A stretch of 64,000 nt of DNA from Nanobdellota archaeon (GTDB taxonomy: Archaea > Nanobdellota > Nanobdellia > Pacearchaeales > GW2011-AR1), in the NCBI GenBank assembly GCA_021818475.1, contig JAKADZ010000002.1:536-64535 (forward strand). The letters run 5' to 3'. The position numbers and the translations under genes were made by a program. Under the pieces are notes generated by a model, which worked only from the letters and a program-made list of their open reading frames with translations, ran no database searches and had not been told where the DNA came from. The number at the start of each line of letters is the position of its first letter. Positions within the stretch are counted from its first letter, which is position 1. This document shows positions 3,732 to 58,722 of the stretch, piece after piece.

Positions 3732-4196
3732 ATGAATCAGATAATAATTGAAGAAAATAATTTTGACAGGGCAAGAAAATTAATTAATGAAAATAAAGAA
3801 AAGAAAATAATCTTTTCTTCTGACGATGATGAGATTAACAGAAAAATTCTTGAAAAAGAAAAGATAAATATGCTTTTGTTAAATCAATCAGGAAGAAAAG
3901 ATTTTCAGAAACAAAGAAATTCAGGATTCAATCAGGTTCTTGCAAAACTTGCGAAAAAGAATGAAGTCCTGATCGGAATCAACTTTGATGAAATAATAAA
4001 ATCAGAGGAGAGAGAAAAAGCCAAAATTTTAGCGAGAGTAATGCAGAATATTGAAATTTGCAAAAAAAATAAAGTAAAAATGAAATTTATCACAAAAAAT
4101 CAAAAGAGGAATATTCATGACTTAAAATCATTAGGTTTAGTCTTGGGTATGCCAACATGGATGACGAGCGATTTCGCAATGCCGGAAAAAATTTAG
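3732..4196 (+). CDS. RNase P protein component 3 (Rpp30-like), short form
   Basis: GFNQVLAKLAKKNEVLIGINF...LKSLGLVLGM aligns by eye with archaeal Rpp30 (GIDHVLAKL...LISLGVVIGM); the last about 10 codons are encoded by a repeat element. Confidence 0.65.
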   Translation: MNQIIIEENNFDRARKLINENKEKKIIFSSDDDEINRKILEKEKINMLLLNQSGRKDFQKQRNSGFNQVLAKLAKKNEVLIGINFDEIIKSEEREKAKILARVMQNIEICKKNKVKMKFITKNQKRNIHDLKSLGLVLGMPTWMTSDFAMPEKI

Positions 4197-4277
4197 TTGC
4201 ATTTGCGGGGTCGGGAGCAGAGCGATTTCACGAATGCTTGAAAATTTTTAAATGCAATGAGTGGAGTCGGGAGCAGA
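4166..4277 (+). repeat. two tandem copies of repeat module (gatttcRcgaatgc...aaatttaRntgca...gtcgggagcag)
   Basis: Copy a 4166-4220 and copy b 4220-4277; related to 13150-13210, 18490-18560 and 37430-37490. Confidence 0.7.
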
Positions 4278-4326: not shown

Positions 4327-5841
4327 ATGGCTGTTGCTGAAAAAATAATAGAATCTTTAAGTGCAAATGAGAGGAAAATATTACCTTACCTAAATGAAAA
4401 TATCGAAGAAATCTCGAAGAAATCTCATCTGGACAGGACTTCAGTTTTAAGAGCGTTGGAATATTTAGAAAACAAAGGAATTGTGACATTAAACCATGAA
4501 AAAAAGAAATTTGTGGAATTAGGAGTTAATGGTGCTTTATACAAAAACAAAGGTTTGCCGGAAAGAAGATTATTAAGTTTATTAAACGAAAAAACAATTT
4601 TGAAGCTCGAGGATGCACAAAAACAGAGTCAGCTTTCTGATGATGAATTCAAAGTTTCTCTAGGAGTTCTAAAGAAAAAAGCTCTTGTTGGAATAAGCAA
4701 TGGGAAAATATCACTTTCTGCACGCGGTGATGAAATTTCAAAAAAAAGTCTGGAAGAATTATTTCTGGAATCGCTTCCGATGGAATACAGACTATTAAAA
4801 CCGGAACAATTATTCGCATTAAAATCTCTTGAAAACAGAAGAGACATAATAAGGATAAAGGAAGAAGAATCAGTGGGAGTTAATGTAACAAAAGTAGGAG
4901 AAGAAATAGTAAAATCAGAAAAAAAAGTAGGAGAATTAATTGAAGCAGTTACCCCGCAAATGCTTGAAAAAGAATCGCTATGGAAAGGAAAAAAATTCAG
5001 AAGATATGATGTTACTTCACAATTGCCTTCAATAAATGGTGGCAAAAGGCATTTTGTAAATCAAGCTATTGATTATGCGAGAAAAGTCTGGACAGAGATG
5101 GGATTTCAGGAAATGAACGGGAATATGCTTCAAAGTTCGTTCTGGAATTTCGATGCTTTATTCACTGCACAAGATCACCCAGTAAGAGAAATGCAGGATA
5201 CTTTCTTTGTAAATAAAAAAGCTGAATTGCCGGATAAGAAATTAGTGAAAGCAGTAAAAGACAGTCATGAAAAAGGAGTTGACGGAAGCAAAGGATGGGA
5301 ATATGAATGGAATGAAGAAGAAGCCAAAAAAGTAGTTTTGAGGACACATACGACATGCTTATCCGCAAATACTCTTGGAAAGATGGATAAAAAAAATATT
5401 CCTGTAAAATTTTTCGCAATTGGAAAATGTTTCAGAAATGAAACTGTTGACTGGAGCCATGGGTTTGAATTCAATCAGTCAGAAGGGATAGTCGTCGGAA
5501 AAAATTTAAGTTTCAGAAATCTTCTGGGCTATTTGCAGGAATTTTTCAAAAAAATGGGATTTGAAAAAATTAGATTCCGCCCATCTTATTTCCCTTACAC
5601 AGAGCCAAGTGTAGAGATAGATGTATGGCATCCGGAGAAAAAAATATGGTTTGAACTGGGAGGAGCAGGAATTTTCCGTCCTGAAGTCACAATTCCATTA
5701 TTAGGAGAAAAAATGACAGTCCTTGCATGGGGCCCGGGTTTTGACAGAATGATTATGGATTATTACAACATAAAAGATTTGAGAGGACTTTACAAAAATG
5801 ATTTAAGTAAATTAAGAAAGATGAAATTTTGGATGAAATGA
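4327..5841 (+). CDS. pheS: phenylalanyl-tRNA synthetase alpha subunit
   Basis: Class II motifs FRNE (motif 2) and GPGFDRMIM (motif 3). Start set at ATG 4327 (MAVAEKI) because the upstream GTG extension lies in a repeat. Confidence 0.9.
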   Translation: MAVAEKIIESLSANERKILPYLNENIEEISKKSHLDRTSVLRALEYLENKGIVTLNHEKKKFVELGVNGALYKNKGLPERRLLSLLNEKTILKLEDAQKQSQLSDDEFKVSLGVLKKKALVGISNGKISLSARGDEISKKSLEELFLESLPMEYRLLKPEQLFALKSLENRRDIIRIKEEESVGVNVTKVGEEIVKSEKKVGELIEAVTPQMLEKESLWKGKKFRRYDVTSQLPSINGGKRHFVNQAIDYARKVWTEMGFQEMNGNMLQSSFWNFDALFTAQDHPVREMQDTFFVNKKAELPDKKLVKAVKDSHEKGVDGSKGWEYEWNEEEAKKVVLRTHTTCLSANTLGKMDKKNIPVKFFAIGKCFRNETVDWSHGFEFNQSEGIVVGKNLSFRNLLGYLQEFFKKMGFEKIRFRPSYFPYTEPSVEIDVWHPEKKIWFELGGAGIFRPEVTIPLLGEKMTVLAWGPGFDRMIMDYYNIKDLRGLYKNDLSKLRKMKFWMK

Positions 5842-6239
5842 AAAAACAAACAAACAATGATTGTATATTCTGCAAAATAATTGCAGGAGAAATTCCCGCG
5901 GCAAAACTTTGGGAAGATGAAAAATTTTTTATTTTTTTAGACCAGTCTCCGATAAATCCAGGACACACTTTAGTCATACCAAAGAAACATGCAGATTATC
6001 TTTTCGATTTAAATGAAAAAGAATATGCCGAATTAATGTTAAAGGCAAAAGAAGTTGCAAAAGTTTTGAAAAAGAAAATGGACTGCAAAAGAGTAGGCAT
6101 GGCGGTTGAAGGATTTTTTGTTCCGCATGTTCATGTTCATTTAGTTCCGGAAAATAAAGGGAATGAATTAAATCCTGAGAGGGCAAAACCAATGACTCCC
6201 GAGGAATTAAATAAAATAAAAGAAAGGATTTTGAAATAA
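5838..6239 (+). CDS. HIT-family nucleotide hydrolase
   Basis: CIFCKI start and histidine triad HVHVHLVP; ATGA start/stop overlap with pheS (the ORF track starts at 5829). Confidence 0.85.
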   Translation: MKKQTNNDCIFCKIIAGEIPAAKLWEDEKFFIFLDQSPINPGHTLVIPKKHADYLFDLNEKEYAELMLKAKEVAKVLKKKMDCKRVGMAVEGFFVPHVHVHLVPENKGNELNPERAKPMTPEELNKIKERILK

Positions 6240-10050: not shown

Positions 10051-12357
10051 TTATTGAATGGGAAGGGTAAAATAAAAAGTAGTATTTCCCTTAAATTTAC
10101 TCTCTGCCCAAATTTTTCCCCCATGCATCTCAATTATTGTTTTCGAAATATTCAGGCCTAATCCTGTCCCTTTCTTTTTTGTCTCAACTTCTCCAATCTG
10201 CGAAAAGGGTTTGAACAATTTTTCCATATCTTTCTTTTTAATTCCTATTCCATTGTCAGTTACCCGGACAAGAATATTTTTACCTTCTGCTTTTGTACTA
10301 ACTGTCACCCATGGATTATTTGAATTATTAAATTTGATGGCATTATCAATGAGATTGATTAAAACCTGATTAATTTTTTCTGCATCCATTTTTAATTTCG
10401 GCACTTTTCTCAAATTTAATTTTATGTCTACCTTATTTCCCTCCGCTAATGGCTTCATTACTTCGACGCTGTCCCGAATGATTTTATTAATATCTTCCTC
10501 CCGTTTAATTAAAGCCATATTCTGTTTCATCCTGCTCAGATTTAAAATTTGTTCAAGAAGTTGGTTTAATCTTTTTATATTTCTTGAAATAATCCCCAAA
10601 CTTTCCACTTGTCTTTGATTAAGTTTCCCGAGATCTCCCCGCTGAAGACTGTCTGCCTGTATTAAAATTGGAGTGATAGGGGTCTTAATCTCATGAGCAG
10701 TGAGATTTATGAAATCAGATTTCATTTTGTCGAGAGTCTCTAATTGCTTGTAAGAAAATTTAAGCTTCTTTACACTTTCTTCAAGTTCAGATTTGTTGTG
10801 CATTAATTCTTCAGTTCTTATTTTAACTTTTTCTTCTAGCTGCTCCTGATACATCTTCTTTTCGGTTATATCGTGGATTATTATCAAATCTGCATATTTT
10901 CCGCTGTAATTTATTTTTCTCGCATTTAATTCCGCAAATATTTTTTTATTCCCCCTGCCAACAAGGATAGTTTCATATTTTGACGGAACATTCTCTCCCC
11001 TCAATCTTTTTCTATAATTTAAAATTAATTCGGGAATTTTCTCTGGAGAGACAAACTGCATAAAAGATTTACCAATAATTTTTTTCAAATCTAACCCGCT
11101 CATTTTTTCAATTGCATGATTTGCATATTTGATTCTGGTATCCTGGACGATAATAATCCCGTCATTCGCTTTTTCTGAAACAGTCTTGTATTTTTCCTCA
11201 CTTTCTTTTAATTTGTCCTCTGCTCTTTTTCTTCTGTTTATATCTTCCGTATGAACCACAAAATATGCTACCTTTCCGTTTAGGTCTTTCACCACCGCGA
11301 TGCTTAATGCAACCCAGATTATTTCTCCATTTTTATGGATATATCTTTTTTCCAAATATCCATAATCTTTTTTTCCAGAAAGTAAATCCATTGTAAGATT
11401 TTTTGTCTTTTCAACATCCTCGGGATATGTTATCTGAAGGTATGCTTTTGTAAGCAGTTCTTCCTCAGAATACCCGGTAATCCTGCACAATGCTTTATTT
11501 ACCTGAAGCCATTTTCCATCAAGTGCAACCAAAGAAGTTCCTATACCGGAAAATTCGAAAATTTTTCTGAATCTCTCCTCGCTTTCTCTTAATCTGTCTT
11601 CTGTTTCTTTTCTTTTATTTATATTTTCAATGCGGAATAAAAAGTATTTGGGTTTATTATTCGAATCCTTTATCATTGCAATGTTTAGTGCAACCCATAT
11701 TACTCTTCTGTCCTTTGAAACAAATTTCTCTTCAAATGATTCATAATCTTCTTTCCCGGATAAAATTTTTAGAATTGCCTTTTTTGTTTGTTCAGTCTCT
11801 TCTGGAAAGATTAACTGATTGTATGTCTTTTTCAGAAGTTCTTTTTCTGAATATCCCATCATCCTGCACAGGGCTTTATTTACCTGCAAAAATTTTCCGT
11901 CCATTTTTACTATGGCAATTCCCAAAACTGAATGTTCGAAAATTTTTCTGAATCTCTCCTCGCTTTCTCTTAATTTTTCTTCTGCTTCTCTGTCTGCAGT
12001 GATATTTCTAATTCTGCACTGGACTAATTTTTTATAATCTACAGAGTAAACATTTCCTGTCAATTCTACTTCAATTTTCTCCCCGCTTTTTGTCTTTGCA
12101 GATAAACTTTTATAATGAACTTCTTTTTTGGCTTTTAGTTCTCTGAATATTTTTTCGCATCTTTCTTTTTCCCCAAAAAATTTTACATCCCACGGTTTTC
12201 TGCCAATCAAACCCTCCTTTTTATAACCTAAAATTTTAGTTACTGCAGGATTAACATTTTCTATCACACCGGTTTCATAATTTAATAAAAGAATTCCATC
12301 TTGAAAAGTTTCAAACAGTTTTTCAAATCTTAATTTATACTCCTCTTTTTCTTCCAC
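10051..12357 (-). CDS. cytoplasmic sensor histidine kinase with four PAS domains
   Basis: Four PAS-like repeats, H-box LTAHEIKTP, N-box NLIDNAIKF, G1 DNGIGI, G2 GTGLGL; no TM segment. Confidence 0.9.
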   Translation of the reverse strand: MEEKEEYKLRFEKLFETFQDGILLLNYETGVIENVNPAVTKILGYKKEGLIGRKPWDVKFFGEKERCEKIFRELKAKKEVHYKSLSAKTKSGEKIEVELTGNVYSVDYKKLVQCRIRNITADREAEEKLRESEERFRKIFEHSVLGIAIVKMDGKFLQVNKALCRMMGYSEKELLKKTYNQLIFPEETEQTKKAILKILSGKEDYESFEEKFVSKDRRVIWVALNIAMIKDSNNKPKYFLFRIENINKRKETEDRLRESEERFRKIFEFSGIGTSLVALDGKWLQVNKALCRITGYSEEELLTKAYLQITYPEDVEKTKNLTMDLLSGKKDYGYLEKRYIHKNGEIIWVALSIAVVKDLNGKVAYFVVHTEDINRRKRAEDKLKESEEKYKTVSEKANDGIIIVQDTRIKYANHAIEKMSGLDLKKIIGKSFMQFVSPEKIPELILNYRKRLRGENVPSKYETILVGRGNKKIFAELNARKINYSGKYADLIIIHDITEKKMYQEQLEEKVKIRTEELMHNKSELEESVKKLKFSYKQLETLDKMKSDFINLTAHEIKTPITPILIQADSLQRGDLGKLNQRQVESLGIISRNIKRLNQLLEQILNLSRMKQNMALIKREEDINKIIRDSVEVMKPLAEGNKVDIKLNLRKVPKLKMDAEKINQVLINLIDNAIKFNNSNNPWVTVSTKAEGKNILVRVTDNGIGIKKKDMEKLFKPFSQIGEVETKKKGTGLGLNISKTIIEMHGGKIWAESKFKGNTTFYFTLPIQ

Positions 12358-12394
12358 CTTTAATTAATAATAGAACTAACAATTTAAATTTTTC

Positions 12395-12423
12395 TTAAGC
12401 CTGTGCTGAGGATTGGGCCTCAC
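12395..12423 (-). pseudogene. displaced partial copy of the tRNA-Thr 3' end (T-arm-like hairpin plus acceptor strand)
   Basis: ttaagcctgtgctgaggattg is identical to 12486-12506, 91 bp away. Confidence 0.7.
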
Positions 12424-12488
12424 GTTTGCTCGACCTCATTCGTCTAAAAGCCAAATGAAACCACGTTCAATGTTCAATCCTTAATTTT

Positions 12489-12596
12489 AAGCCTGTGCTG
12501 AGGATTGAACTCAGGACCCCCACATTTTTGTATGATTTAAGCAGTAATATAAATTCAATACCAATGTGGTACTCTAACCAACTGAGCTACACAGGC
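12489..12596 (-). tRNA. tRNA-Thr(GGU) with 34-nt intron at 37/38
   Basis: Hand-folded: acceptor GCCTGTG/CACAGGC, D arm GCTC/GAGT, anticodon stem CCACA/TGTGG, loop TTGGTAA, T arm CTGAG-TTCAATC-CTCAG; intron 12525-12558. Confidence 0.75.
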
Positions 12597-12968
12597 GTAT
12601 TTATCAAATGTAGCGAAGGTATTTTAGTTTTTCTACCATTATAGTTTCTCTTTTCTAAAAAGAAACCTATGAGCTACACAGGTGTATTTATTAAAATGTA
12701 GCGAAGGTATTTTAGTTTTTCTACCATTATAGTTTCTCTTTTCTAAAAAGAAACCTATGAGCTACACAGGTGTATTTATCAAATGTAGCGAAGGTATTTT
12801 AGTTTTTCTACCATTATAGTTTCTCTTTTCTAAAAAGAAACCTATGAGCTACACAGGTGTATTTATTAAAATGTAGCGAAGGTATTTTAGTTTTTCTACC
12901 ATTATAGTTTCTCTTTTCTAAAAAGAAACCTATGAGCTACACAGGTGTATTTATTAAAATGTAGCGAA
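12584..12968. repeat. tandem array, 4.4 copies of 87/88 bp: tRNA-Thr nt 1-14 plus about 73 nt of its upstream region
   Basis: Units start at 12584, 12671, 12759, 12846 and 12934. The 87/88-bp variants alternate (tatttatcaaatg vs tatttattaaaatg), giving a 175-bp higher-order period. Confidence 0.95.
12620..12633 (-). promoter_or_regulatory. candidate BRE/TATA (GAAAAAC TAAAATA) at -37 to -24 of tRNA-Thr
   Basis: A/T-rich box at the distance expected for archaeal promoters; repeated in every unit of the upstream array. Confidence 0.35.
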
Positions 12969-13006
12969 TAAATACATTTTAAGCATTTCTACTCTTCTTT
13001 TTTCTA

Positions 13007-13250
13007 AGAAACCAGCTGTTCAAAGAACACAACTTCAATCTTTCTTTTCCCTGTTTCTACCACTGTAGGTTCTTTTTTCAAAGAACCCCATTTTCTACCA
13101 TTATAGTTTCTTTCATTTGGCTCTAACGAATGAAAGTGAACGCGAGAGTTTTCACGAGTGCCGGAAAAAAATTTAACAGCAACAAGTGAGGGCTCGAGGA
13201 AAGTGAACTTTTGTTAAAAGAAACCAGCTGTTCAAAGAACACAACTTCAA
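13007..13250. repeat. perfect 32-nt direct repeat pair (13007-13038 and 13219-13250)
   Basis: agaaaccagctgttcaaagaacacaacttcaa occurs twice, 212 bp apart, flanking hairpin-box and mosaic-repeat modules. Confidence 0.9.
13096..13210 (+). repeat. mosaic repeat copy (tttcatttggctctaacgaatgaaagtgaac + gagagttttcacgagtgccggaaaaaaatttaa)
   Basis: Near-identical to 37428-37470; its left part is an inverted match to 12428-12462. Confidence 0.7.
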
Positions 13251-13287
13251 GTTTTCTACCATTATAGTTTCTTTTGTTAAAAGAAAC

Positions 13288-13569
13288 CTATTTCTTAACT
13301 TTTTTTAAAATCCATAGAACAAGAAGTGCAATTAAAAGAGCAATCGCAACAAATCCGAATGCTATTGTCATAATATAAAAAGTGTTGCTTAAAATGCCGA
13401 GATTAGGCAAAAATCTATACAAAACCAGAAACACCAAAGATAAAGCTACAAAAAGTAATAAATTCTTTACAACCAAAGATGTTTTATTTTTTAAACCATT
13501 AGATTGTGGAGCAGTTCTTCTTGCTCTTCTTACTTTTCTAACTTGTTTCGTCCTCTTTTTTTTTGCCAT
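13288..13569 (-). CDS. small membrane protein with K/R-rich N-terminus (93 aa)
   Basis: Basic N-terminus followed by two hydrophobic helices. Confidence 0.5.
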   Translation of the reverse strand: MAKKKRTKQVRKVRRARRTAPQSNGLKNKTSLVVKNLLLFVALSLVFLVLYRFLPNLGILSNTFYIMTIAFGFVAIALLIALLVLWILKKVKK

Positions 13570-13604
13570 TTATATTATATATTATAAAATATAGTTTATA
13601 AAGA

Positions 13605-13904
13605 TTATCCTGTCTGATTACCTTTCCAGTTCATATGAATTGCATTTGTAGTCAAAATTTTCATATTGTTGAATACAAATCCCAACCAGTTAAAATATAT
13701 TTTAGCTACATTCTCAACATCAGAAATTGAATTTATCGTTATATCCTTCCCCTTGAAAACTTCATTAAAGCTGAAAAAACCAAAGAGAAGAAGTGCAATC
13801 AGGAAAAGGGAAAAAAATTTATGTTTTACTCTTTTTATCTCAAAGATAAAATAAATTGCAATAACTAAAACAATTATTATAAGAAGGGTAATCCCAATAG
13901 CCAT
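13605..13904 (-). CDS. small membrane protein (99 aa)
   Basis: Two predicted TM helices; in the same orientation as the neighbouring gene. Confidence 0.5.
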   Translation of the reverse strand: MAIGITLLIIIVLVIAIYFIFEIKRVKHKFFSLFLIALLLFGFFSFNEVFKGKDITINSISDVENVAKIYFNWLGFVFNNMKILTTNAIHMNWKGNQTG

Positions 13905-13996
13905 GAATAATTAAACAAAAAGATATATAAAAATATTTCTGATGCCCAAGATGATTTTAATCATCGCGCGTCTGACGGTTTCTACAGAGATTTGTT

Positions 13997-14100
13997 TGCA
14001 AATTAAGATGCCCCTCTGCCGAACTCGGGTCGCCACTCATTACAATTATATTTTTTCCGGCACTCGTGAAAACTCTCGGATTTGAATCGGGTTCCCCTCG
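13997..14100 (-). pseudogene. degenerate fragments of the tRNA-Glu 3' half, interleaved with an inverted mosaic-repeat module
   Basis: 14008-14037 and 14078-14097 resemble 14111-14145; 14055-14078 is the reverse complement of cgagagttttcacgagtgccggaa. Confidence 0.55.
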
Positions 14101-14111
14101 TTCAAATAATA

Positions 14112-14305
14112 TGCCCCTGCCGAGATTTGAACTCGGGTCGCCACCGTACTCTAACGAGAGATTGCATTGAGATGCATAGATCTCTCACTCTCATCGAGCT
14201 TAGATCACCTCTCATTAATCGTTTTGAGATCGGATTTTAAATCCTCACTCAATCCACTTTCGCGTTTTGAGAGGGTGGTATCCTTGGCCTCTAGACTACA
14301 GGGGC
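14112..14305 (-). tRNA. tRNA-Glu(CUC) with 121-nt intron at 37/38
   Basis: Exon 1 GCCCCTGTAGTCTAGAGGCCAAGGATACCACCCTCTCA (D arm like the E. coli tRNA-Glu I recall); exon 2 C-GGTGG-CGAC-CCGAG-TTCAAAT-CTCGG-CAGGGGC-A; intron 14147-14267. Confidence 0.7.
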
Positions 14306-14465
14306 ATTTTCTATGCCAATGGAGTATTCAGCAAAATCTTCCTGATTTTAGCCTAGACTATAAAGGCATTTCTTATATCGATATAATTTTATAGACTCTT
14401 AATTTAAAAGAGTTTGCTTCAGCATTCGTAAACTTTTAAAAGTGCAGCAATCCTCTATTTTACAT

Positions 14466-14582
14466 AGCCCCATAGTACAGCGGTCAAGTATATCGGCCTC
14501 TGGAGCTCACGAGAGAGTCGTTCACTCTCTCCGTATAGAACAGAGAGAGCCGGTGACCCAGGTTCGAATCCTGGTGGGGCTA
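14466..14582 (+). tRNA. tRNA-Gln(CUG) with 44-nt intron at 37/38
   Basis: AGCCCCA acceptor, D arm GTAC/GTAT, anticodon stem TCGGC/GCCGG, T arm CCAGG-TTCGAAT-CCTGG; intron 14504-14547. Confidence 0.75.
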
Positions 14583-14651
14583 TGAATAAAAAAGGATGAG
14601 AACCATTGGGTTTTGTTCGGAAAATTTACGAACAAGAAGGAACGAAGTGAA

Positions 14652-14669
14652 CTCCGAATCTGGGGGCTA
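14652..14669 (+). pseudogene. displaced degenerate copy of the tRNA-Gln 3' end
   Basis: ctccgaatctgggggcta resembles ttcgaatcctggtggggcta, which ends 87 bp upstream. Confidence 0.55.
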
Positions 14670-14677
14670 TATATTTA

Positions 14678-15190
14678 ATGGAAAATGAATCAACCATGAG
14701 CACAAATTCAGTAGGAAGATCAAGCGAACGAAACCGGGGGTGTCGTCGCATATCTAAAGAGACTATAGATTTTAATAAGGAACTGTTATTTGGAGAAATA
14801 GGAGCTTTAATAGGAATTCAGTTTGTTGATTTTATCTCCTTATTTTTCTCAATTTCAATAAGTTTAATTCCTCATTTGATAATTCTAGGGGCAATAATCG
14901 GAGGCTCATTATTCTGGATTTCTGCAAGAATTTATTACAAGTCAAAAGAAGGAAATTACTCGGAAAAAAAACTTATAACAGATGTTGAATATTTCGCCCC
15001 TGCTTCAGCAATTTTAACTTTTACTTTTTATTATCCCGCATTATTTTTTTCAACAAAATATTTTCTGATTCATCACAGGCATCTGGAATTCTCCAGCATA
15101 GTTTCGCAGACAATTGCCTTTCTTTTATTTGTGATAGCAATCAACATTTACAGATACGTGCTGTTCAAAGTATTCAGAAAAAAAATATGA
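14678..15190 (+). CDS. membrane protein (170 aa as tracked; true start uncertain)
   Basis: Four hydrophobic helices. The first about 27 codons run through repeat sequence ending in gtgtcgtcgcATA. Confidence 0.5.
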   Translation: MENESTMSTNSVGRSSERNRGCRRISKETIDFNKELLFGEIGALIGIQFVDFISLFFSISISLIPHLIILGAIIGGSLFWISARIYYKSKEGNYSEKKLITDVEYFAPASAILTFTFYYPALFFSTKYFLIHHRHLEFSSIVSQTIAFLLFVIAINIYRYVLFKVFRKKI

Positions 15191-18424: not shown

Positions 18425-18625
18425 TAAAAATATGTGAACAAACGAGTGAAATTTTTCCCCATTAACTTTTTTCCTTGGCGAAGAAATCTGGCAGAGCCCG
18501 AGCATTTGCACGAATGCGAGAAAAAATTAAATGCAATGAGTGCGGGTGCGAGTTATTTCGGAGCAATTCATCTCAAAATTTTCTCTGAAAATTTTGCACT
18601 TTTTCCTCTTGAAGAGAAAAATTAA
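18425..18625 (+). repeat. mosaic repeat copy (gtgaaatttttccccattaac module, aaattaaatgcaatgag module, A/T hairpin 18574-18596)
   Basis: Collinear with 27530-27660 apart from an about 60-nt insert. Confidence 0.7.
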
Positions 18626-27673: not shown

Positions 27674-27824
27674 TTAAGAAACCGATTAGGTGTTCGTCAT
27701 CAGCCATGAGCAGTCTCTCAAAGGGAAAAGCTATTAAGAAGAACCGTTTAGGTGTTCGTCATCAGCCATGAGCAGTATCTTAAAGGGAGAAGCTATTAAG
27801 AAGAACCGATTAGGTTCGTCTTAG
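27674..27824. repeat. 2.5 tandem copies of a 60-62-nt unit running into the fen1 stop codon
   Basis: Units start at 27674, 27734 and 27796 (ttaagaaRaaccgWttaggtgttcgtcatcagccatgagcagt...aaaggga); related to 58611-58719. Confidence 0.9.
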
Positions 27825-36416: not shown

Positions 36417-37310
36417 ATGAATCTCTCACAAAAACAAAAAATTCTGAAAGCAGGGGAAATAGCGAAAACTGTCAGGGAATATGCTCGGACAATTGTAAAA
36501 AAGGACGTTCCTCTTTTGGAGATTGCAGAAAAAATAGAAGCAAAAATAATTGAGCTTGGTGGCAAGCCTGCCTTTCCAACTAACCTTTCAATAAATGAAA
36601 TTGCCGCACATTATACTCCTGCTTATAATGATGAAACTAAAGCGGAAGGTCTGATAAAAGTGGATATGGGAGTTCACATTGACGGATGGATTGCAGATTT
36701 CACTTTTTCATTAGATTTGGAAAATAATCCGGAAAATAAAAAATTAATTGAAGCGTCGGAAAAAGCATTGCAAAATGCAATCGAGAAGGCAAAACAAAAA
36801 AGTTCTCTCGGAGAAATAGGGAAAGCAATTCAGGAAACCATTGAATCTTACGGGGCTTCGCCGATAATAAATCTCACAGGACATGAAATGGATGAATATG
36901 ACCTTCATGCAGGACTTGCAATTCTTAATATTACGAATAAAAATTCAGAAAAACTGCCAGAAGGATTGTACGCAATCGAACCTTTCACAACAAAAGGCAG
37001 CGGGAAAATTCATGAGGGAAAACCCTCCGGAATTTATCAATTAACAAATGATAAAAATGTAAGAAATCCTGAGGCAAGAAAAGTTTTGAATTTTATAATT
37101 GAAGAATACAAAACTTTACCGTTCTGTTCAAGATGGCTCGTAAAAAAATTAGGCGTTAAGGCTTTATTTTCTTTAAGACAGCTGGAAGAAAATGGAAATT
37201 TATATCAATATCCCCAGTTAGTGGAAATTTCAAAAAGCAAAGTTGCTCAGGCAGAAGACACCATTCTCGTAGAGAACAATGAAGTAATTGTTACAAGTGG
37301 GGTTCTTTGA
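36417..37310 (+). CDS. map: methionine aminopeptidase, type 2 (archaeal)
   Basis: AAHYTP, VDMGVHIDGWIADFTF, GHEM and the pita-bread metal ligand pattern. Confidence 0.85.
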   Translation: MNLSQKQKILKAGEIAKTVREYARTIVKKDVPLLEIAEKIEAKIIELGGKPAFPTNLSINEIAAHYTPAYNDETKAEGLIKVDMGVHIDGWIADFTFSLDLENNPENKKLIEASEKALQNAIEKAKQKSSLGEIGKAIQETIESYGASPIINLTGHEMDEYDLHAGLAILNITNKNSEKLPEGLYAIEPFTTKGSGKIHEGKPSGIYQLTNDKNVRNPEARKVLNFIIEEYKTLPFCSRWLVKKLGVKALFSLRQLEENGNLYQYPQLVEISKSKVAQAEDTILVENNEVIVTSGVL

Positions 37311-37394
37311 GGAAGAAAGAGTCTACAATGGTAGAAATAAGAAAAATAATTTATAATTTTTTCTCTTCTTTTTAAAAGATAACTTCCTTCAAAA

Positions 37395-37505
37395 ATTTCG
37401 CAAATAAAAAAACTTTTCCTTCGGGGAGGCGAGAGTTTTCACGAGTGCCGGAAAAAAATTTAAATGCAACGAGGGGGGCTCGAGTTGGGCGGGAATGATG
37501 GAATA
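37395..37505 (+). repeat. mosaic repeat copy (gagagttttcacgagtgccggaaaaaaatttaaatgcaacgag...gttgggcggg)
   Basis: Near-identical stretch to 13140-13185. Confidence 0.75.
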
Positions 37506-42349: not shown

Positions 42350-42353
42350 AAAG

Positions 42354-42426
42354 CGTCTCGTATAGGACTCGAACCTATGACCCCCTGATTAACAGTCAGG
42401 TGCTCTACCAACTGAGCTAACGAGAC
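42354..42426 (-). tRNA. tRNA-Asn(GUU), no intron
   Basis: GTCTCGT-TA-GCTC-AGTTGGTA-GAGC-A-CCTGA-CTGTTAA-TCAGG-GGGTC-ATAGG-TTCGAGT-CCTAT-ACGAGAC-G. Confidence 0.9.
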
Positions 42427-42515
42427 ATTATGACCTAGTTAGCGAATGAATGCATTAAGCATTTCTACCATTGTAGTTTCTTTCTTCTCAAAGAAACCCA
42501 GTGAGCTAACGAGAC
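42427..42515 (-). repeat. hairpin-box element plus duplicated tRNA-Asn 5' fragment
   Basis: gagctaacgagac is repeated at 42503-42515, 89 bp from 42414-42426. Between them (minus strand) lies GGTTTCTTTGAGAAGAAAGAAAC-TACAATGGTAGAAA. Confidence 0.85.
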
Positions 42516-42548
42516 ACAATTAGAAAAATTTTTTCGATTATTTAAAGG

Positions 42549-48885: not shown

Positions 48886-50874
48886 TTATAATTTATTATG
48901 CACTAAAATATTATCTGCATAATAATAATGATAATTATCTATTTCCAGATTATAAGTAATTTGGGGGTCATAAACTTTTTTAATACTTGTAATGATAACC
49001 TTTTCTCCAGAAGAATTGATTAAATAATCACCAACTTTAGCATTTCCGATTTCAGTAAGATGACCATTAACAATTATTGGATGATTAGGAGTTACTTCCA
49101 AATATCCATTAATTAATAGATAGTAATTTCCCATTTCATAAGGATTATGTTCAAATGTCTTTGAAACCCTTGAAATTACTTGTTTCTTAGTTAATTCATT
49201 ATAACTTACAACTTTATCCCCTACTTTTACATCTTCAATATTTTTCAAACTGCCATCTGCCATTAATACTTTAGTTCCAGCTAAGAAACAAGCTTGCACT
49301 CCAACAACATAAGCTTGACTATATTGAATTCCCCCGTTTCCTTTCTTTCCAGTACCAACACTTACCGTAGGATCAGGTGTGGTTGGGGTAGTAGTAGCAG
49401 AAGAGATTAAATTGGATTCGTAACTAGTTGGAACAGTGATAGCTGGAAGGACAACCCCCCCTAATGAAGCACCAGCCTGACTATTTAAAGAAGCATATGT
49501 AGTTGCATCAACTGAAGTATATTGTATGGTTCCATCAGGATTAGTACCTGTTGCTACCAGATATAGAGGGGATGAAACTGTAGTAGGACTTGTAGTAGTC
49601 GTGGTAGTCGTGGTAGTCGTGGTAGTCGTAGTAGTTGATGGAGTGGTGGAAGTTGCTGGAGTTGATGAAATACCTGTAGAACCTGGTGCAGCATTACATC
49701 CTGGTCCAGAAGTACAACCTTGATTAACTATTGGAGTATAGACAGTAACTACTTGTGGCGGGGTGTAGGATGGAATAACCAAAGGAGTTAGGGCGATAGT
49801 TGGTGTAGCAGAAGGTAGAATAGGGTCAATTAAGCCGACAGAGGGTAATTCAGAAATTGGAGTCGGAATAAATCCTGGTGTAGGCTGACCCCCGTAAGGA
49901 TTTACATAACCATAACTAGGGGTAGTAGTACTAACAGCAGGAAGGATAGCTCCATGAGGGGAATTTGTTCCTCCAGTTTGTGAAGAAGAGGGATTGTAGC
50001 AACCAGCTCCCAAATAACATGCTTTAACTGTTCCGGGAGTTGGGTCTCCAAAAAAATTATTATTACATGGAGCAGAAGGAGAAGTAGCAACTATTGTATT
50101 AAAATTATTATTCGCGCCGTATGAAACAAACCATGTTCCTGAAGGAATATTACAGGTTCCCCCCTCATCTGCGCATTTTGTGCATCCTGAAACCTGAATA
50201 TCACAAGGTGAATGAGACACATTCGGAGCAAATGTTATAGCAGCAAGAAATTCTCCTGAACTCCCAAGAGGAATAAAATAATCATTGTTAGGGTTAGAAT
50301 TATGCAGTTGGTAACAAACAGAATTCATCATAATTTTATTAGAATAATCCTGTGGTTTGAGTTCATAACAAAGCCCTCGAATTCCTGCTTTTTGACATTG
50401 AGCTTCAGTTCTAAAACCAGAACCGTGAATTGGGAGATGCACATCAGAATTGGGAGTAACAACTATTGAAGAAGTTACATCATTAAAATTATTATTGACA
50501 AAACAATCATCATTGGAAGATAAAGTCAGGAGATTTCCCTGAAAATTATCATCCGAATATAACTCAACAGTATAACCTGAACTAACTTTAATTGAAGATA
50601 AATCATTATCTTTTATTCCCAAAGCCTGCAACTGACTGAGAGAATAAGCTCCCGGATATAATCCAACCGAATATCCCCCATAACTACAGTCCTGATAAAC
50701 TGTTACAGGAGCTAATATAGATGTAACTGAAGTTGTAGTAGTTGAAGTTGAAGTTGACTTATCAACATTAGACCCAGGAGTAACTCCAGCAGCAGGAGAT
50801 ATAGCCAAAGGAACTAAAAAAAATAAGAATACAAAGCTGATAACTAAAACAGGCAGTATTTTTTGATTGTTCAT
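48886..50874 (-). CDS. secreted protein: signal peptide, beta-gamma-crystallin-like domain, Cys-rich region, S/T/P linker with Thr15 run, C-terminal Hint (intein-like) domain
   Basis: Hint at 48889-49290: CFLAGTKVLMADG (block A), TPNHP (block B), terminal ILVHN followed only by KL. Crystallin-like region: YQDCSYGGYS...DLSSIKV...LYSDDNFQG...VTSSIVV. Confidence 0.75.
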   Translation of the reverse strand: MNNQKILPVLVISFVFLFFLVPLAISPAAGVTPGSNVDKSTSTSTTTTSVTSILAPVTVYQDCSYGGYSVGLYPGAYSLSQLQALGIKDNDLSSIKVSSGYTVELYSDDNFQGNLLTLSSNDDCFVNNNFNDVTSSIVVTPNSDVHLPIHGSGFRTEAQCQKAGIRGLCYELKPQDYSNKIMMNSVCYQLHNSNPNNDYFIPLGSSGEFLAAITFAPNVSHSPCDIQVSGCTKCADEGGTCNIPSGTWFVSYGANNNFNTIVATSPSAPCNNNFFGDPTPGTVKACYLGAGCYNPSSSQTGGTNSPHGAILPAVSTTTPSYGYVNPYGGQPTPGFIPTPISELPSVGLIDPILPSATPTIALTPLVIPSYTPPQVVTVYTPIVNQGCTSGPGCNAAPGSTGISSTPATSTTPSTTTTTTTTTTTTTTTSPTTVSSPLYLVATGTNPDGTIQYTSVDATTYASLNSQAGASLGGVVLPAITVPTSYESNLISSATTTPTTPDPTVSVGTGKKGNGGIQYSQAYVVGVQACFLAGTKVLMADGSLKNIEDVKVGDKVVSYNELTKKQVISRVSKTFEHNPYEMGNYYLLINGYLEVTPNHPIIVNGHLTEIGNAKVGDYLINSSGEKVIITSIKKVYDPQITYNLEIDNYHYYYADNILVHNKL

Positions 50875-50875
50875 T

Positions 50876-51565
50876 TTATCCGCATTTAACCTTTAAATCA
50901 TCAATTTCTTTTTGTTGCTCTTTTATAGCTTCAACCAAAACTCCGACGAGATTTCCATATTCAACAGATTTTAATCCGGTAACTTCATTGGTTGAAACTA
51001 ATTGAGGATAAACTTTTTCAACATCTTGAGCAATTAAACCCACATCTGCTCTTCCGTCGGATTTCCAGTTAAATGAAACTCCCTGAAGTTGCTCTACTTT
51101 AGATAATGCATCCTGAAGTTCACTGATGTTAGTTTTTAATGATCTGTCTGAAGTATAAAGAAAAGCAGTGCCTGATATGTAATTAGCAGAAAGATTTCCG
51201 CCTATTGCAACATTTCCATTTATACTGGTAAGCAAATTCTTGCTCCAGTCAGTAGGTGCAATCAAAAGTTGTGTTCCTGTTTTAGGTTCAATATAAATTT
51301 GACCAGTTGGATTGTATAAACCCCACATTTCTAATTTTGTCTGTCCATAAGTTGAAGAGGAACCTGGGCAGGTTGAAGCGTCACATGTAGAAAATAATTC
51401 CTGATTAACACCTGCACTAAAATCAATTTGAGCCGCAGAATGTCCCGGATTTGGAACAGCTGCATAAACTCCTGCTGCAACTAATGCAATAATTCCCAAA
51501 GTAATTAAAAAGTAAATAGCTTTATTAGACAAACTAGTCTTTTTTAACCCCTTTTTATTCACCAT
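50876..51565 (-). CDS. signal-anchored protein with C-terminal peptidase-S74 (intramolecular chaperone) domain
   Basis: YTSDRSLKTNI (Ser-Lys dyad context), GVSFNWK, VGLIAQDVEKVYPQLV, VEYGNLVGVLVEAIKEQQKEIDDL. Confidence 0.7.
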   Translation of the reverse strand: MVNKKGLKKTSLSNKAIYFLITLGIIALVAAGVYAAVPNPGHSAAQIDFSAGVNQELFSTCDASTCPGSSSTYGQTKLEMWGLYNPTGQIYIEPKTGTQLLIAPTDWSKNLLTSINGNVAIGGNLSANYISGTAFLYTSDRSLKTNISELQDALSKVEQLQGVSFNWKSDGRADVGLIAQDVEKVYPQLVSTNEVTGLKSVEYGNLVGVLVEAIKEQQKEIDDLKVKCG

Positions 51566-58284: not shown

Positions 58285-58610
58285 CGAAGATTGGATTTAT
58301 TTCTAGATTTGAACAGCGATCTCGCGAGTGTCGGAAATTTAGTTTTCTTTTACACGTTAGTTTTTCTTTCTGCATTTCTGTGCAGAATGGGCGGGATTCC
58401 ACTCGCACTTTTTCTAAAAGAAAAACCACACAACAAGAGAGGTCGGGAGGCGTCGTTCATTTATCACCTCTTTTTTAAAATGCACTACAAACATAACACC
58501 CCCTAAATTTTTCTCCAATAATTAATTTCCAGCGAAGTGCCTTAACAAAGTTGGCGCGGAGCAATCAATCAAAAAAATTCATAGAATTTTTTTGCAAATT
58601 TTTTAAAAAA
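58285..58610 (+). repeat. mosaic repeat region (gcgatctcgcgagtgtcggaaattta, aatgggcggg, gcggagcaatcaatc, A/T hairpin 58570-58594)
   Basis: Same modules as the other spacers; all ORFs across it are judged spurious. Confidence 0.7.
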
Positions 58611-58719
58611 TTATTAGGCTTAACCCTCTCTCAAGGGAGATGTTGATAAGAAGACCGATTATTGTTATTAGGCTTAACCCTCTCTCAAAGGAAAGTTTGA
58701 TAAAGAAAACGATTAGTTG
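58611..58719. repeat. two tandem copies of a 54-55-nt unit ending 3 nt from the uppS stop
   Basis: ttattaggcttaaccctctctcaaRgga...gataaRaaRaMcgatta, twice; related to 27674-27824. Confidence 0.9.
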
Positions 58720-58722
58720 TCT

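Follow-up and report, generated by a model that had tools for sequence, protein, structure and literature searches.

A dispersed hairpin and putative promoter element behind partial tRNA 5' ends in DPANN archaea and its tandem array at a tRNA-Thr gene

An array of partial tRNA 5' ends at tRNA-Thr(GGU)

The stretch of DNA analysed here (64,000 nucleotides of contig JAKADZ010000002.1 from a Nanobdellota archaeon, hereafter the window) carries on its minus strand a tRNA-Thr(GGU) gene at 12490-12596 and, on the 5' side of that gene, four extra tandem units of 87 or 88 bp (12583-12968). Each array unit is made up of a hairpin, the box CTATAATGGTAGAAA, a TATA-like box, the segment TTCGCTACA and nucleotides (nt) 1-14 of the tRNA. 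We refer to the hairpin and box together as E1, to E1 with its TATA-like box as the cassette, and to a partial copy of a tRNA 5' end as a stub. Tandem Repeats Finder describes the span 12583-12968 either with a period of 88 (4.4 copies, 97% matches, score 737) or with a period of 175 (2.2 copies, 98%, score 749), and the 13-mer TGAGCTACACAGG occurs in it five times, at spacings of 87, 88, 87 and 88, for a chance expectation of 0.

The gene itself is easily overlooked. Rfam RF00005 recovers it with 53.7 bits in E-value mode, and it is missed both by the default mode of ARAGORN and at the Rfam gathering threshold; if introns are permitted, ARAGORN puts the intron in the wrong place and so reports tRNA-Phe(AAA). 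That intron is 33 nt long (12526-12558) and lies at the canonical position 37/38. After its removal the tRNA (...CCACATTGGTAATGTGG...) aligns with the intronless tRNA-Thr(GGU) of locus L027 from another metagenome-assembled genome (MAG), which identifies the gene as tRNA-Thr(GGU).

Read on the tRNA strand, the locus begins with an older promoter and the oldest stub and continues through units U1, U2, U3 and U4 into the intact tRNA. The older part (12933-13013) is a partly deleted E1 copy with what we term a type-a promoter (GGTTTCTTAGAAAAAAGAAGAGTAGAAATGCTTAAAATGTATTTATTCGCTACA...), ending in the oldest stub, ACCTGTGTAGCTCA, at 12946-12933 (TTTTAAT, A1). U1 (88 nt, 12845-12932) has the spacer variant TTTTAAT and closes with an A1 stub; U2 (87 nt, 12758-12844) is a recombinant that combines the spacer TTTGAT with an A1 stub; U3 (88 nt, 12670-12757) is again of the TTTTAAT variant, its last part being the stub ACCTGTGTAGCTCA; and U4 (87 nt, 12583-12669), with TTTGAT and G1, is the only unit that runs on into an intact tRNA. 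The units differ at these two places only, namely the spacer (TTTTAAT versus TTTGAT) and tRNA position 1 (A versus G). Within U4, the E1 core of hairpin and box occupies 12669-12628 and is followed by the TATA-like CTAAAATA (12627-12620), TTCGCTACA (12617-12609), the spacer TTTGATAAATAC (12608-12597) and the true tRNA nt 1-14 (12596-12583). From the end of CTAAAATA to +1 there are 23 nt, a spacing shared with the tRNA promoters of these genomes that have no cassette. The anatomy proposed by the first-pass annotation thus holds throughout: all the motifs it listed are present in the units, the stub is tRNA nt 1-14 with G1 changed to A, the last unit alone is a gene, 87- and 88-bp variants alternate, and the TATA-like box stands at the proper distance. 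What it overlooked is that the hairpin and box belong to a dispersed family conserved across the lineage, that the order of stub, cassette and tRNA recurs at many tRNA genes, tRNA-Asn of the window among them, and that TTCGCTACA contains a run complementary to the 5' end of the tRNA itself.

The array is polymorphic. A look-up of the neighbouring 93-aa protein in public assemblies retrieved near-identical contigs from other samples of a mine-drainage study, and the comparison in related contigs, which the first-pass annotation had recommended, gives 0, 2 or 4 extra units. In allele L001 there are none, and the tRNA stands directly behind the older type-a promoter; allele L002 has two and the window four. 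The addition of a single 175-bp block (U2+U3) to L002 yields the window, in line with the earlier suggestion that the array grew by a two-unit block of that length. The junction of L001 (…GTATTTATTCGCTACATTTGATAAATACGCC…) has only 12 nt in common with the array form; being absent from that form and not producible by collapse at k of at least 21, it marks a genuine allele. U2, in turn, has exactly the composition to be expected if an unequal exchange fell in the 9 nt that separate the two variant positions.

That the array is an assembly artefact, the assembler having looped through the repeat of a locus that truly has one unit, could be argued from the k=141 MEGAHIT-type assemblies behind the contigs, from a 175-bp period barely above k and from three assemblies having produced three copy numbers. 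We nevertheless judge this to be highly improbable. In Logan unitigs from four independent DNA runs (X1-X4), the array unitigs have a depth of 58-126 against 11-40 for the single-copy flanks (a ratio of 3.3-4.2), and the sequence unique to U2 (TTTGAT with A1, bin 12744-12780) reaches single-copy depth in X1 and X3 and is missing in X2 and X4. Since the 0-unit allele and the 2-unit allele have junction sequences of their own, they are real variants. Furthermore, a second two-unit array exists at another tRNA (L028), in an unrelated MAG as well as a Joint Genome Institute (JGI) metagenome. With short-read assemblies as its basis, the exact copy number per molecule is supported, not proven. The L028 locus was the only other array that a strict pattern for two adjacent units retrieved from the JGI metagenomes, and amplification to four extra units is therefore unusual. 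The same unitigs include a further low-depth allele in X4, with a different spacer and no array, and a DNA unitig lacking exactly the 33-nt tRNA-Thr intron (12526-12558), present in X1, X3 and X4 at flank-like depth, which indicates an intronless tRNA-Thr copy in the community or elsewhere in the genome.

A dispersed element and its recurrent layout at tRNA genes

E1 is present in nine copies in the window, for 0.04 expected by chance: four in the array, three just upstream of it, one at 37291-37342 and one 5' of tRNA-Asn. Its stem of ~11-17 bp (GGGTTTCTTT...AAAGAAAC) reaches into the box CTAYAATGGTAGAAA, the consensus of the full element being (A)TGGGTTTCTTTTTTAGAAAAAAAGAAACTACAATGGTAGAAAAA, and the tRNA-linked forms add the TATA-like box and the motif TTCGCTA. 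In a scan of one genome per species, the 19-mer GAAACTAYAATGGTAGAAA was found at 73 loci, ~59 of which have the full element with its hairpin and belong to 29 MAGs of Woesearchaeota, Pacearchaeota and 'Nanoarchaeota'; the remaining 14 matches, in other phyla, lack the hairpin and are about as many as chance would give. Across 23 distinct copies 100% of the stem cells are paired, and two stem pairs show double, compensatory changes (G-C to A-U and U-A to G-C), the former, found in this genome and in L056, ties CTATAATGG to a TAGG start. A small hairpin within the box (CTAC/GTAG) is likewise fully paired and shows no double changes, so that the longer stem is the better supported of the two.

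Other identities for E1 were tried and rejected. A small open reading frame (ORF) was suggested by ATGGGTTTC..., a possible start of a 21-aa peptide, and was dismissed on account of hairpin-arm lengths that vary between copies in frame-shifting steps. The segment CTACAGTGGTAGAAAC resembles the cores of origin recognition boxes (ORB) at replication origins, and the many dispersed copies per genome, all pointing to downstream genes, speak against that identity. Nor is E1 a universal tRNA promoter module, as its box is missing upstream of the tRNAs Gln, Ala and Gly of the window and of 30 tRNAs in the compared loci.

To define the surroundings of the element we surveyed 69 copies outside the window's own population for sequence just 5' of the hairpin that is repeated within 200 nt downstream. 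All clear cases of such duplication are tRNA 5' ends, at ~18 loci and ~11 tRNA species (Thr, Lys, Glu, Gln, Ile with two species, Arg, Asn and three others), and they present one order of parts: old promoter, stub of tRNA nt 1-14/15, E1, TATA-like box, complementary run, variable spacer and intact tRNA. At tRNAs the duplicated segment measures 13-17 nt, starting at -3 to +1 and ending at A14 or G15. From the end of the box to tRNA +1 there are 31-36 nt in most tRNA-linked loci, and the TATA-like 8-mer precedes +1 by 22-28 nt in 11 of 16 cassette loci, the corresponding distance for cassette-free tRNAs in these loci being mostly 23-28 nt. The cassette box thus has the spacing of an archaeal promoter with its TFB-recognition element and TATA box (BRE/TATA; an A/T-rich 8-mer ~22-28 nt upstream of the start), and we predict it to act as one. 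Slippage at the microhomology between the D-loop TGG and the TGGG at the start of E1 was rejected as the source of the duplication, the stub ending at A14/G15 at any D-loop length.

The tRNA-Asn gene of the window (minus strand, 42353-42426) offers a single-copy instance at 42426-42516. Its 15-nt stub TGTCTCGTTAGCTCA (42516-42502) lies behind an old TTTAAATA promoter and is followed by the E1 hairpin, TACAATGGTAGAAA, TGCTTAATGCATTCATTCGCTAAC, a spacer and the intact tRNA; the promoter is of type a and precedes GCTAAC. There is no polymorphism at this cassette, the layout being alike in all related contigs. Where it is recognisable, at tRNA-Asn and at L018, the original TATA box is kept 22-24 nt upstream of the stub; with the old TATA still in place, the stub represents the original 5' end and the intact gene is the one behind the cassette. 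A duplication is also seen at a leaderless protein gene, L045, where the duplicated ATGGTGATGCA (11-13 nt) opens with the start codon, 21 nt downstream of a TTTAAATA box; transcription is predicted to start at this same position.

The A/T-rich 8-mer divides the cassettes into three subtypes, CTAAAATA, TTAAAATG and TTTAAACC, which cluster by genome and not by tRNA. For example, tRNA-Lys(CTT) has different types, b and a, in two MAGs, and type a is common to Ile and Arg in one MAG and to Asn and the distal Thr copy in the window. Moreover, four older E1 copies are stacked 5' of tRNA-Thr in one orientation, as repeated entry at one site would give; three of them, upstream of the array, are delimited by nhmmer at ~13051-13092, 13090-13114 and 13246-13294 on the minus strand. 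Together, the grouping of subtypes by genome and the stacked older copies argue that E1 has spread repeatedly within genomes and does not go back to a single ancient event.

A further regularity concerns the bases between cassette and gene. TTCGCTA is conserved in tRNA-linked cassettes, and its GCTA complements the near-universal T8-A9-G10-C11 of tRNAs. The bases that follow extend the complement to nt 3-11 of the particular tRNA, giving GCTACACA(G) at Thr, GCTAAC at Asn, GCTATAGG at Ile, GAACTATCGG(G) at Glu and CTGTACTA at Gln. The exact run measures 5-11 nt where the tRNA is linked to E1 and does not exceed 6 nt in 30 control tRNAs, and its mean is 6.8 nt for cognate against 4.5 nt for non-cognate pairs. 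Complementarity falls off with distance from GCTA; since the runs adjoin GCTA without a gap, differ in length and give way to unrelated spacers, we read them as a templated snap-back junction rather than a uniformly selected helix. At tRNA-Thr and tRNA-Glu the stub, cassette and run are conserved between MAGs, and the spacers are completely different.

Away from tRNAs, the E1 copy at 37291-37342 (plus strand) overlaps the last codons of a methionine aminopeptidase gene (Peptidase_M24, 36417-37310), such that the C-terminus of the protein is encoded by E1; at L028 an upstream ORF likewise runs through the cassette into the stub. In two tRNAs (L029, 1124-1253; L051, 349-496), E1 lies inside canonical anticodon-loop introns, from the 5' splice site onwards, and in L036 and L074 it begins right after the tRNA discriminator base.

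The 3' side of tRNA-Thr displays a mirror-image feature (12395-12486, minus strand, family D7): a 21-nt copy of the tRNA 3' end (12395-12415 matching 12487-12507) behind a 71-nt insert, which contains AGGATTGAAC, complementary to the T-arm, and a hairpin of the type of a second dispersed family, E2. The E2 core, TTTTCACGAGTGCCGGAAAAAA, has a built-in GAAC that complements the T-loop motif GTTC. Sites in the window are 13135-13200, 14051-14078, 37430-37490, 4166-4277 (in tandem), 18505-18560 and 58300-58340, and E2 lies just 3' of tRNA-Glu, tRNA-Ala and tRNA-Thr beside runs complementary to each T-arm; 3' features similar to that of tRNA-Thr follow tRNA-Glu and tRNA-Ala. A 57-nt E2 is also nested in the hairpin loop of the middle older E1 copy, with a 9-nt direct repeat, TTCACTTTC, at its flanks. 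The tRNA-Glu(CTC) gene (14111-14306, minus strand, 121-nt intron; flanks 14021-14110 and 14307-14370) has a degenerate 5' stub, GCCTTTATAGTCTAG, 47 nt upstream and, downstream, a partial copy of its 3' part (GTGGCGACCCGAGTTC...GGCAGAGGGGCA) behind an E2 element. In the strain L003 (ERZ27237563 k141_583683, 4400-5900) the neighbouring genes are the same and tRNA-Thr is absent; that place holds two tandem E2, a gene for a 315-aa OB-fold (RPA-like) protein and a long-loop E1 with the compensated box CTATAATGATAG.

Proposed entry of the cassette and growth of the array

We lean towards an account in which E1 serves as a portable promoter cassette. It would enter a gene ~14 nt downstream of the transcription start, the 5' end of the gene being regenerated, and at tRNA-Thr the unit would then have been amplified, recently, by unequal recombination. 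The insertion is inferred from the architecture of the loci, and so are the ability of the cassette to move, its activity as a promoter and the way in which the junction formed. Upon entry the cassette would come to lie right after tRNA nt 14/15, the old promoter would keep a stub of 14-17 nt starting at the old transcription start, and the intact gene would be left behind the TATA-like box of the cassette at the usual distance, the cassette thereby becoming the working promoter. The complementary run, contiguous with the GCTA of the cassette, would be a templated (snap-back) scar of the insertion or its repair. Any entry step must explain the constant break at nt 14/15, the duplication from the transcription start, the inverted run primed by TAGC, the variable filler and the lack of element termini; we favour copying of the cassette from another locus during repair, with conserved tRNA motifs serving as microhomology.

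For the array, a type-b cassette would have landed in a gene already holding an older type-a cassette, and its entry would have created 35-bp direct repeats (TTCGCTAC...GCTCA) that the new unit has in common with the older type-a promoter. Exchange by unequal homologous recombination, or slippage during replication, would then have taken place first between the 35-bp repeats and later between whole units, giving alleles with 0, 2 and 4 extra units, the final step being the gain of one 175-bp two-unit block. That the units were amplified by unequal homologous exchange or slippage between direct repeats is well supported. A complete promoter, a 14-nt stub and a T5 run are still present in every extra unit, which would probably yield short dead-end transcripts or readthrough; the array itself may be neutral. 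Among the three possibilities raised by the first-pass annotation, namely a promoter array, a decoy or the scar of repeated recombination at the tRNA 5' end, the last comes nearest to this account.

A number of observations weigh against entry of a portable cassette. No true empty site, that is, a cassette-free tRNA gene, was found in a close relative. Comparison of the 50 window ORFs of at least 120 aa with Pfam revealed no integrase, transposase, Cas1 or reverse transcriptase, and none of these enzymes is present among array neighbours with precomputed Pfam hits. With no terminal inverted repeats, a variable right border and a duplication of 11-17 nt (35 nt here), there is no classical transposase signature. 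Stubs ending at A14/G15 also accompany inserts of ~28-37 nt that are unrelated to E1 and each have an A/T-rich box (L032, tRNA-Ala; L036, tRNA-Glu), and the tRNA-Glu stub of the window likewise has a short insert unrelated to E1; the break at nt 14/15 may thus be a property of tRNA genes and not of E1. The distance from E1 to downstream ORF starts has no sharp peak. Three metatranscriptomes of the same study are without reads from the organism and so are silent on promoter use. Finally, with stubs identical to the tRNA and spacers saturated with change, the stubs may be selected and functional rather than scars.

Site-specific integration would account for the stubs differently: the tyrosine integrase of a plasmid or virus would have recombined in the 5' part of the tRNA, the element bringing a replacement promoter along with nt 1-14, and deletion of its body would have left the attachment sites attL and attR ~73 nt apart, repeated integrations or recombination between attachment sites then building the array. 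Direct repeats of part of a tRNA are the classic signature of integrated archaeal elements, and such repeats do bound the insert here, with a 21-nt direct repeat at the 3' end of tRNA-Thr as well. There is also a direct precedent in Caldiarchaeum subterraneum, where a 5' fragment of tRNA-Thr(GGU) lies 1.8 kb upstream of the gene with a recombinase-bearing element between them (PMC3293823). At none of the ~18 loci, however, is there an integrase or a kilobase-scale body, the inserts being 30-100 nt long; a single subtype serves different tRNAs with a run that changes with the tRNA, which leaves no fixed attachment core; and no integrase gene exists in the window. A scan of 2.9 million viral contigs produced chance matches only and no hairpin-bearing E1, so that a viral or plasmid attP was rejected; neither the body of an integrase element nor a free attP form was found in the inserts, the viral contigs or the window. 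We consequently give integration little credence.

Movement as a non-autonomous transposon, mobilised in trans by an enzyme that makes a staggered cut of ~14-15 bp in the manner of a casposon integrase, strikes us as rather improbable too. The target would be the conserved D-arm TAGCTCA^G, the stub a target-site duplication, and tandem entries would build the arrays. Casposons make 14-15-bp duplications, favour tRNA genes and stack in tandem as the target is regenerated; these traits agree with duplications that cluster at 14-17 bp and always end at A14/G15, and with the older copies stacked 5' of the tRNA. In comparison with casposon-type integration, the duplications here have a mode of 14-16 nt and a range of 11-17 nt, and they fall at the 5' D-loop. 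Yet the conserved left end TGGGTTTC has no reverse complement at the right end, which changes from locus to locus, and an unrelated spacer of 10-45 nt separates the cassette from the duplicated copy. The duplication departs from a fixed length at L045 (11-13 nt) and here (35 nt), most intergenic E1 copies have no flanking repeat, and the identical units and the U2 recombinant indicate recombination and not four separate insertions. No Cas1 integrase is encoded among the ORFs of the 64-kb window. Lacking inverted termini and a duplication of fixed length, E1 was rejected as a classical miniature inverted-repeat transposable element (MITE) or other cut-and-paste element. Also rejected were a CRISPR array, since the whole 87/88-nt unit is repeated with two variant positions only and no unique spacers, and a tRNA intron or split tRNA, since a complete tRNA follows the insert from nt 1 and not from nt 15; by inspection the sequences at the two junctions are not complementary, and no bulge-helix-bulge appears in the folds.

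The stub, E1 and complement might instead be a selected structured RNA leader or folded single strand that regulates the maturation or expression of the tRNA, its run able to pair with the stub or, alternatively, with the 5' end of the real tRNA, and the array multiplying a functional module or a decoy. Single-strand folds at four different loci share one three-way junction (z-scores -2.6 to -4.7), in which stub nt 4-11 pair with the complementary run as the closing stem, the E1 hairpin forms a second arm and a third hairpin spans the TATA-like box; the preservation of stub, cassette and run beside diverging spacers at tRNA-Thr and tRNA-Glu is consistent with such a role, and an RNase P p30 subunit in the organism would make long leaders processable. 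Against this stand the decay of complementarity from GCTA, which looks like a templated scar; several stubs without a recognisable upstream promoter, such as that of L058; the T5-T7 runs of many E1 hairpins, which should end archaeal transcription; and a copy number of 0-4 within a single population, suggesting that the array is under little selection, if any. Nor does the segment match any RNA family, Rfam 15 reporting only tRNAs both in 12000-14800 at an E-value of at most 1 and in the whole window at gathering scores. We regard such a leader as improbable.

A bolder form of the portable-cassette account, which we offer as unlikely, would make E1 a new kind of non-autonomous mobile promoter of DPANN archaea whose entry is anchored to transcription, at the downstream border of the first-transcribed stretch (~+14/15) of highly expressed genes. 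The segment from start to break would be regenerated, possibly by copying from the transcript or as set by the initiation bubble; the targets would be tRNA genes and at least one leaderless protein gene; and snap-back synthesis, with the universal tRNA motif TAGC as its priming site, would close the junction. E2 would mirror E1 at tRNA 3' ends through the T-loop motif GTTC, and successive entries would push older promoters upstream, resulting in stacked copies and arrays.

Relation to known elements and implications

Parts of this picture are already known, namely the partial tRNA repeats left by integrating elements (PMC3293823), small palindromic repeats that bear promoters and the growth of arrays by unequal exchange. 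With integration of the SSV/pNOB8 type, as in Caldiarchaeum (PMC3293823), the locus shares a partial 5' copy of tRNA-Thr(GGU) before the intact copy and heterogeneity within one natural population; in contrast to the 1.8 kb with a recombinase found there, the intervening DNA here is 73 nt long, non-coding, and consists of a dispersed hairpin family with a tRNA-complementary junction run. Casposons and the repeat duplication of CRISPR (clustered regularly interspaced short palindromic repeats) offer a parallel in their 14-15 bp duplications, preference for tRNA genes and target regeneration that allows tandem stacking. They differ in that the target here is the 5' D-loop and not the 3' end, the 'spacers' are identical and variable filler lies beside the duplicated copy; the terminal inverted repeats of casposons and their Cas1 and polymerase genes are also missing (in the window, for the genes). 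Like the bacterial repetitive extragenic palindromes and interspersed mosaic elements (REP/BIME) and the Correia elements of Neisseria, E1 is a short, non-coding, multicopy intergenic hairpin repeat that can supply transcription signals; unlike them, it is archaeal, is conserved almost base for base across orders, has neither inverted termini nor a fixed short duplication, and is coupled to duplication of the first 14-17 transcribed nt of its target. The short inverted copy, contiguous with a 4-nt microhomology (GCTA/TAGC), and the filler of variable length resemble the templated insertions of microhomology-mediated end joining, and alleles that differ by whole units, one of them recombinant, resemble tandem growth by unequal crossing-over; these general repair outcomes leave unexplained the recurrence of one cassette and one break point at many tRNA genes. 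Literature searches on the motif and on DPANN tRNA repeats yielded no description of the E1 family or its near-identity across DPANN orders, of the coupling to the first 14-17 transcribed nt or of the tRNA-specific inverted run.

If the portable-cassette account is right, a small conserved cassette would regularly take the place of tRNA promoters in Woese-, Pace- and Nanoarchaeota, a large archaeal lineage that is poorly understood, and promoter exchange would leave a recognisable scar in the 14-nt stub and the inverted copy. The cassette is a concrete candidate promoter for organisms without genetics, and stub and cassette together make an easily scored marker for population genomics, with a copy number that varies among samples of one mine-drainage study. 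Annotation is affected as well, for stubs are overlooked or called wrongly, and so are tRNAs that have introns and cassettes. More broadly, the constant break at nt 14/15, the duplication from the transcription start and the templated inverted run outline a repair or insertion pathway that could be found elsewhere.

The window is otherwise an ordinary archaeal chromosome that encodes TBP, MCM, PolB, RFC, FEN1, DNA ligase, PheRS, MetRS, FtsZ, L15e, eIF-2beta and RNase P p30. The p30 homologue (3732-4196, plus strand; 36.9 bits for a cut-off of 35) means that the organism, unlike Nanoarchaeum equitans, is probably able to remove tRNA 5' leaders. Other tandem repeats reported by Tandem Repeats Finder lie at 27680-27815 (62 nt x 2.2, 93%) and 58611-58720 (54 nt x 2, 85%). 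At 48886-51565 (minus strand), a 662-aa protein with a C-terminal Hint/pretoxin-HINT domain adjoins a 229-aa Peptidase_S74 (endosialidase chaperone) protein, a pair that is unusual for a small archaeal genome.

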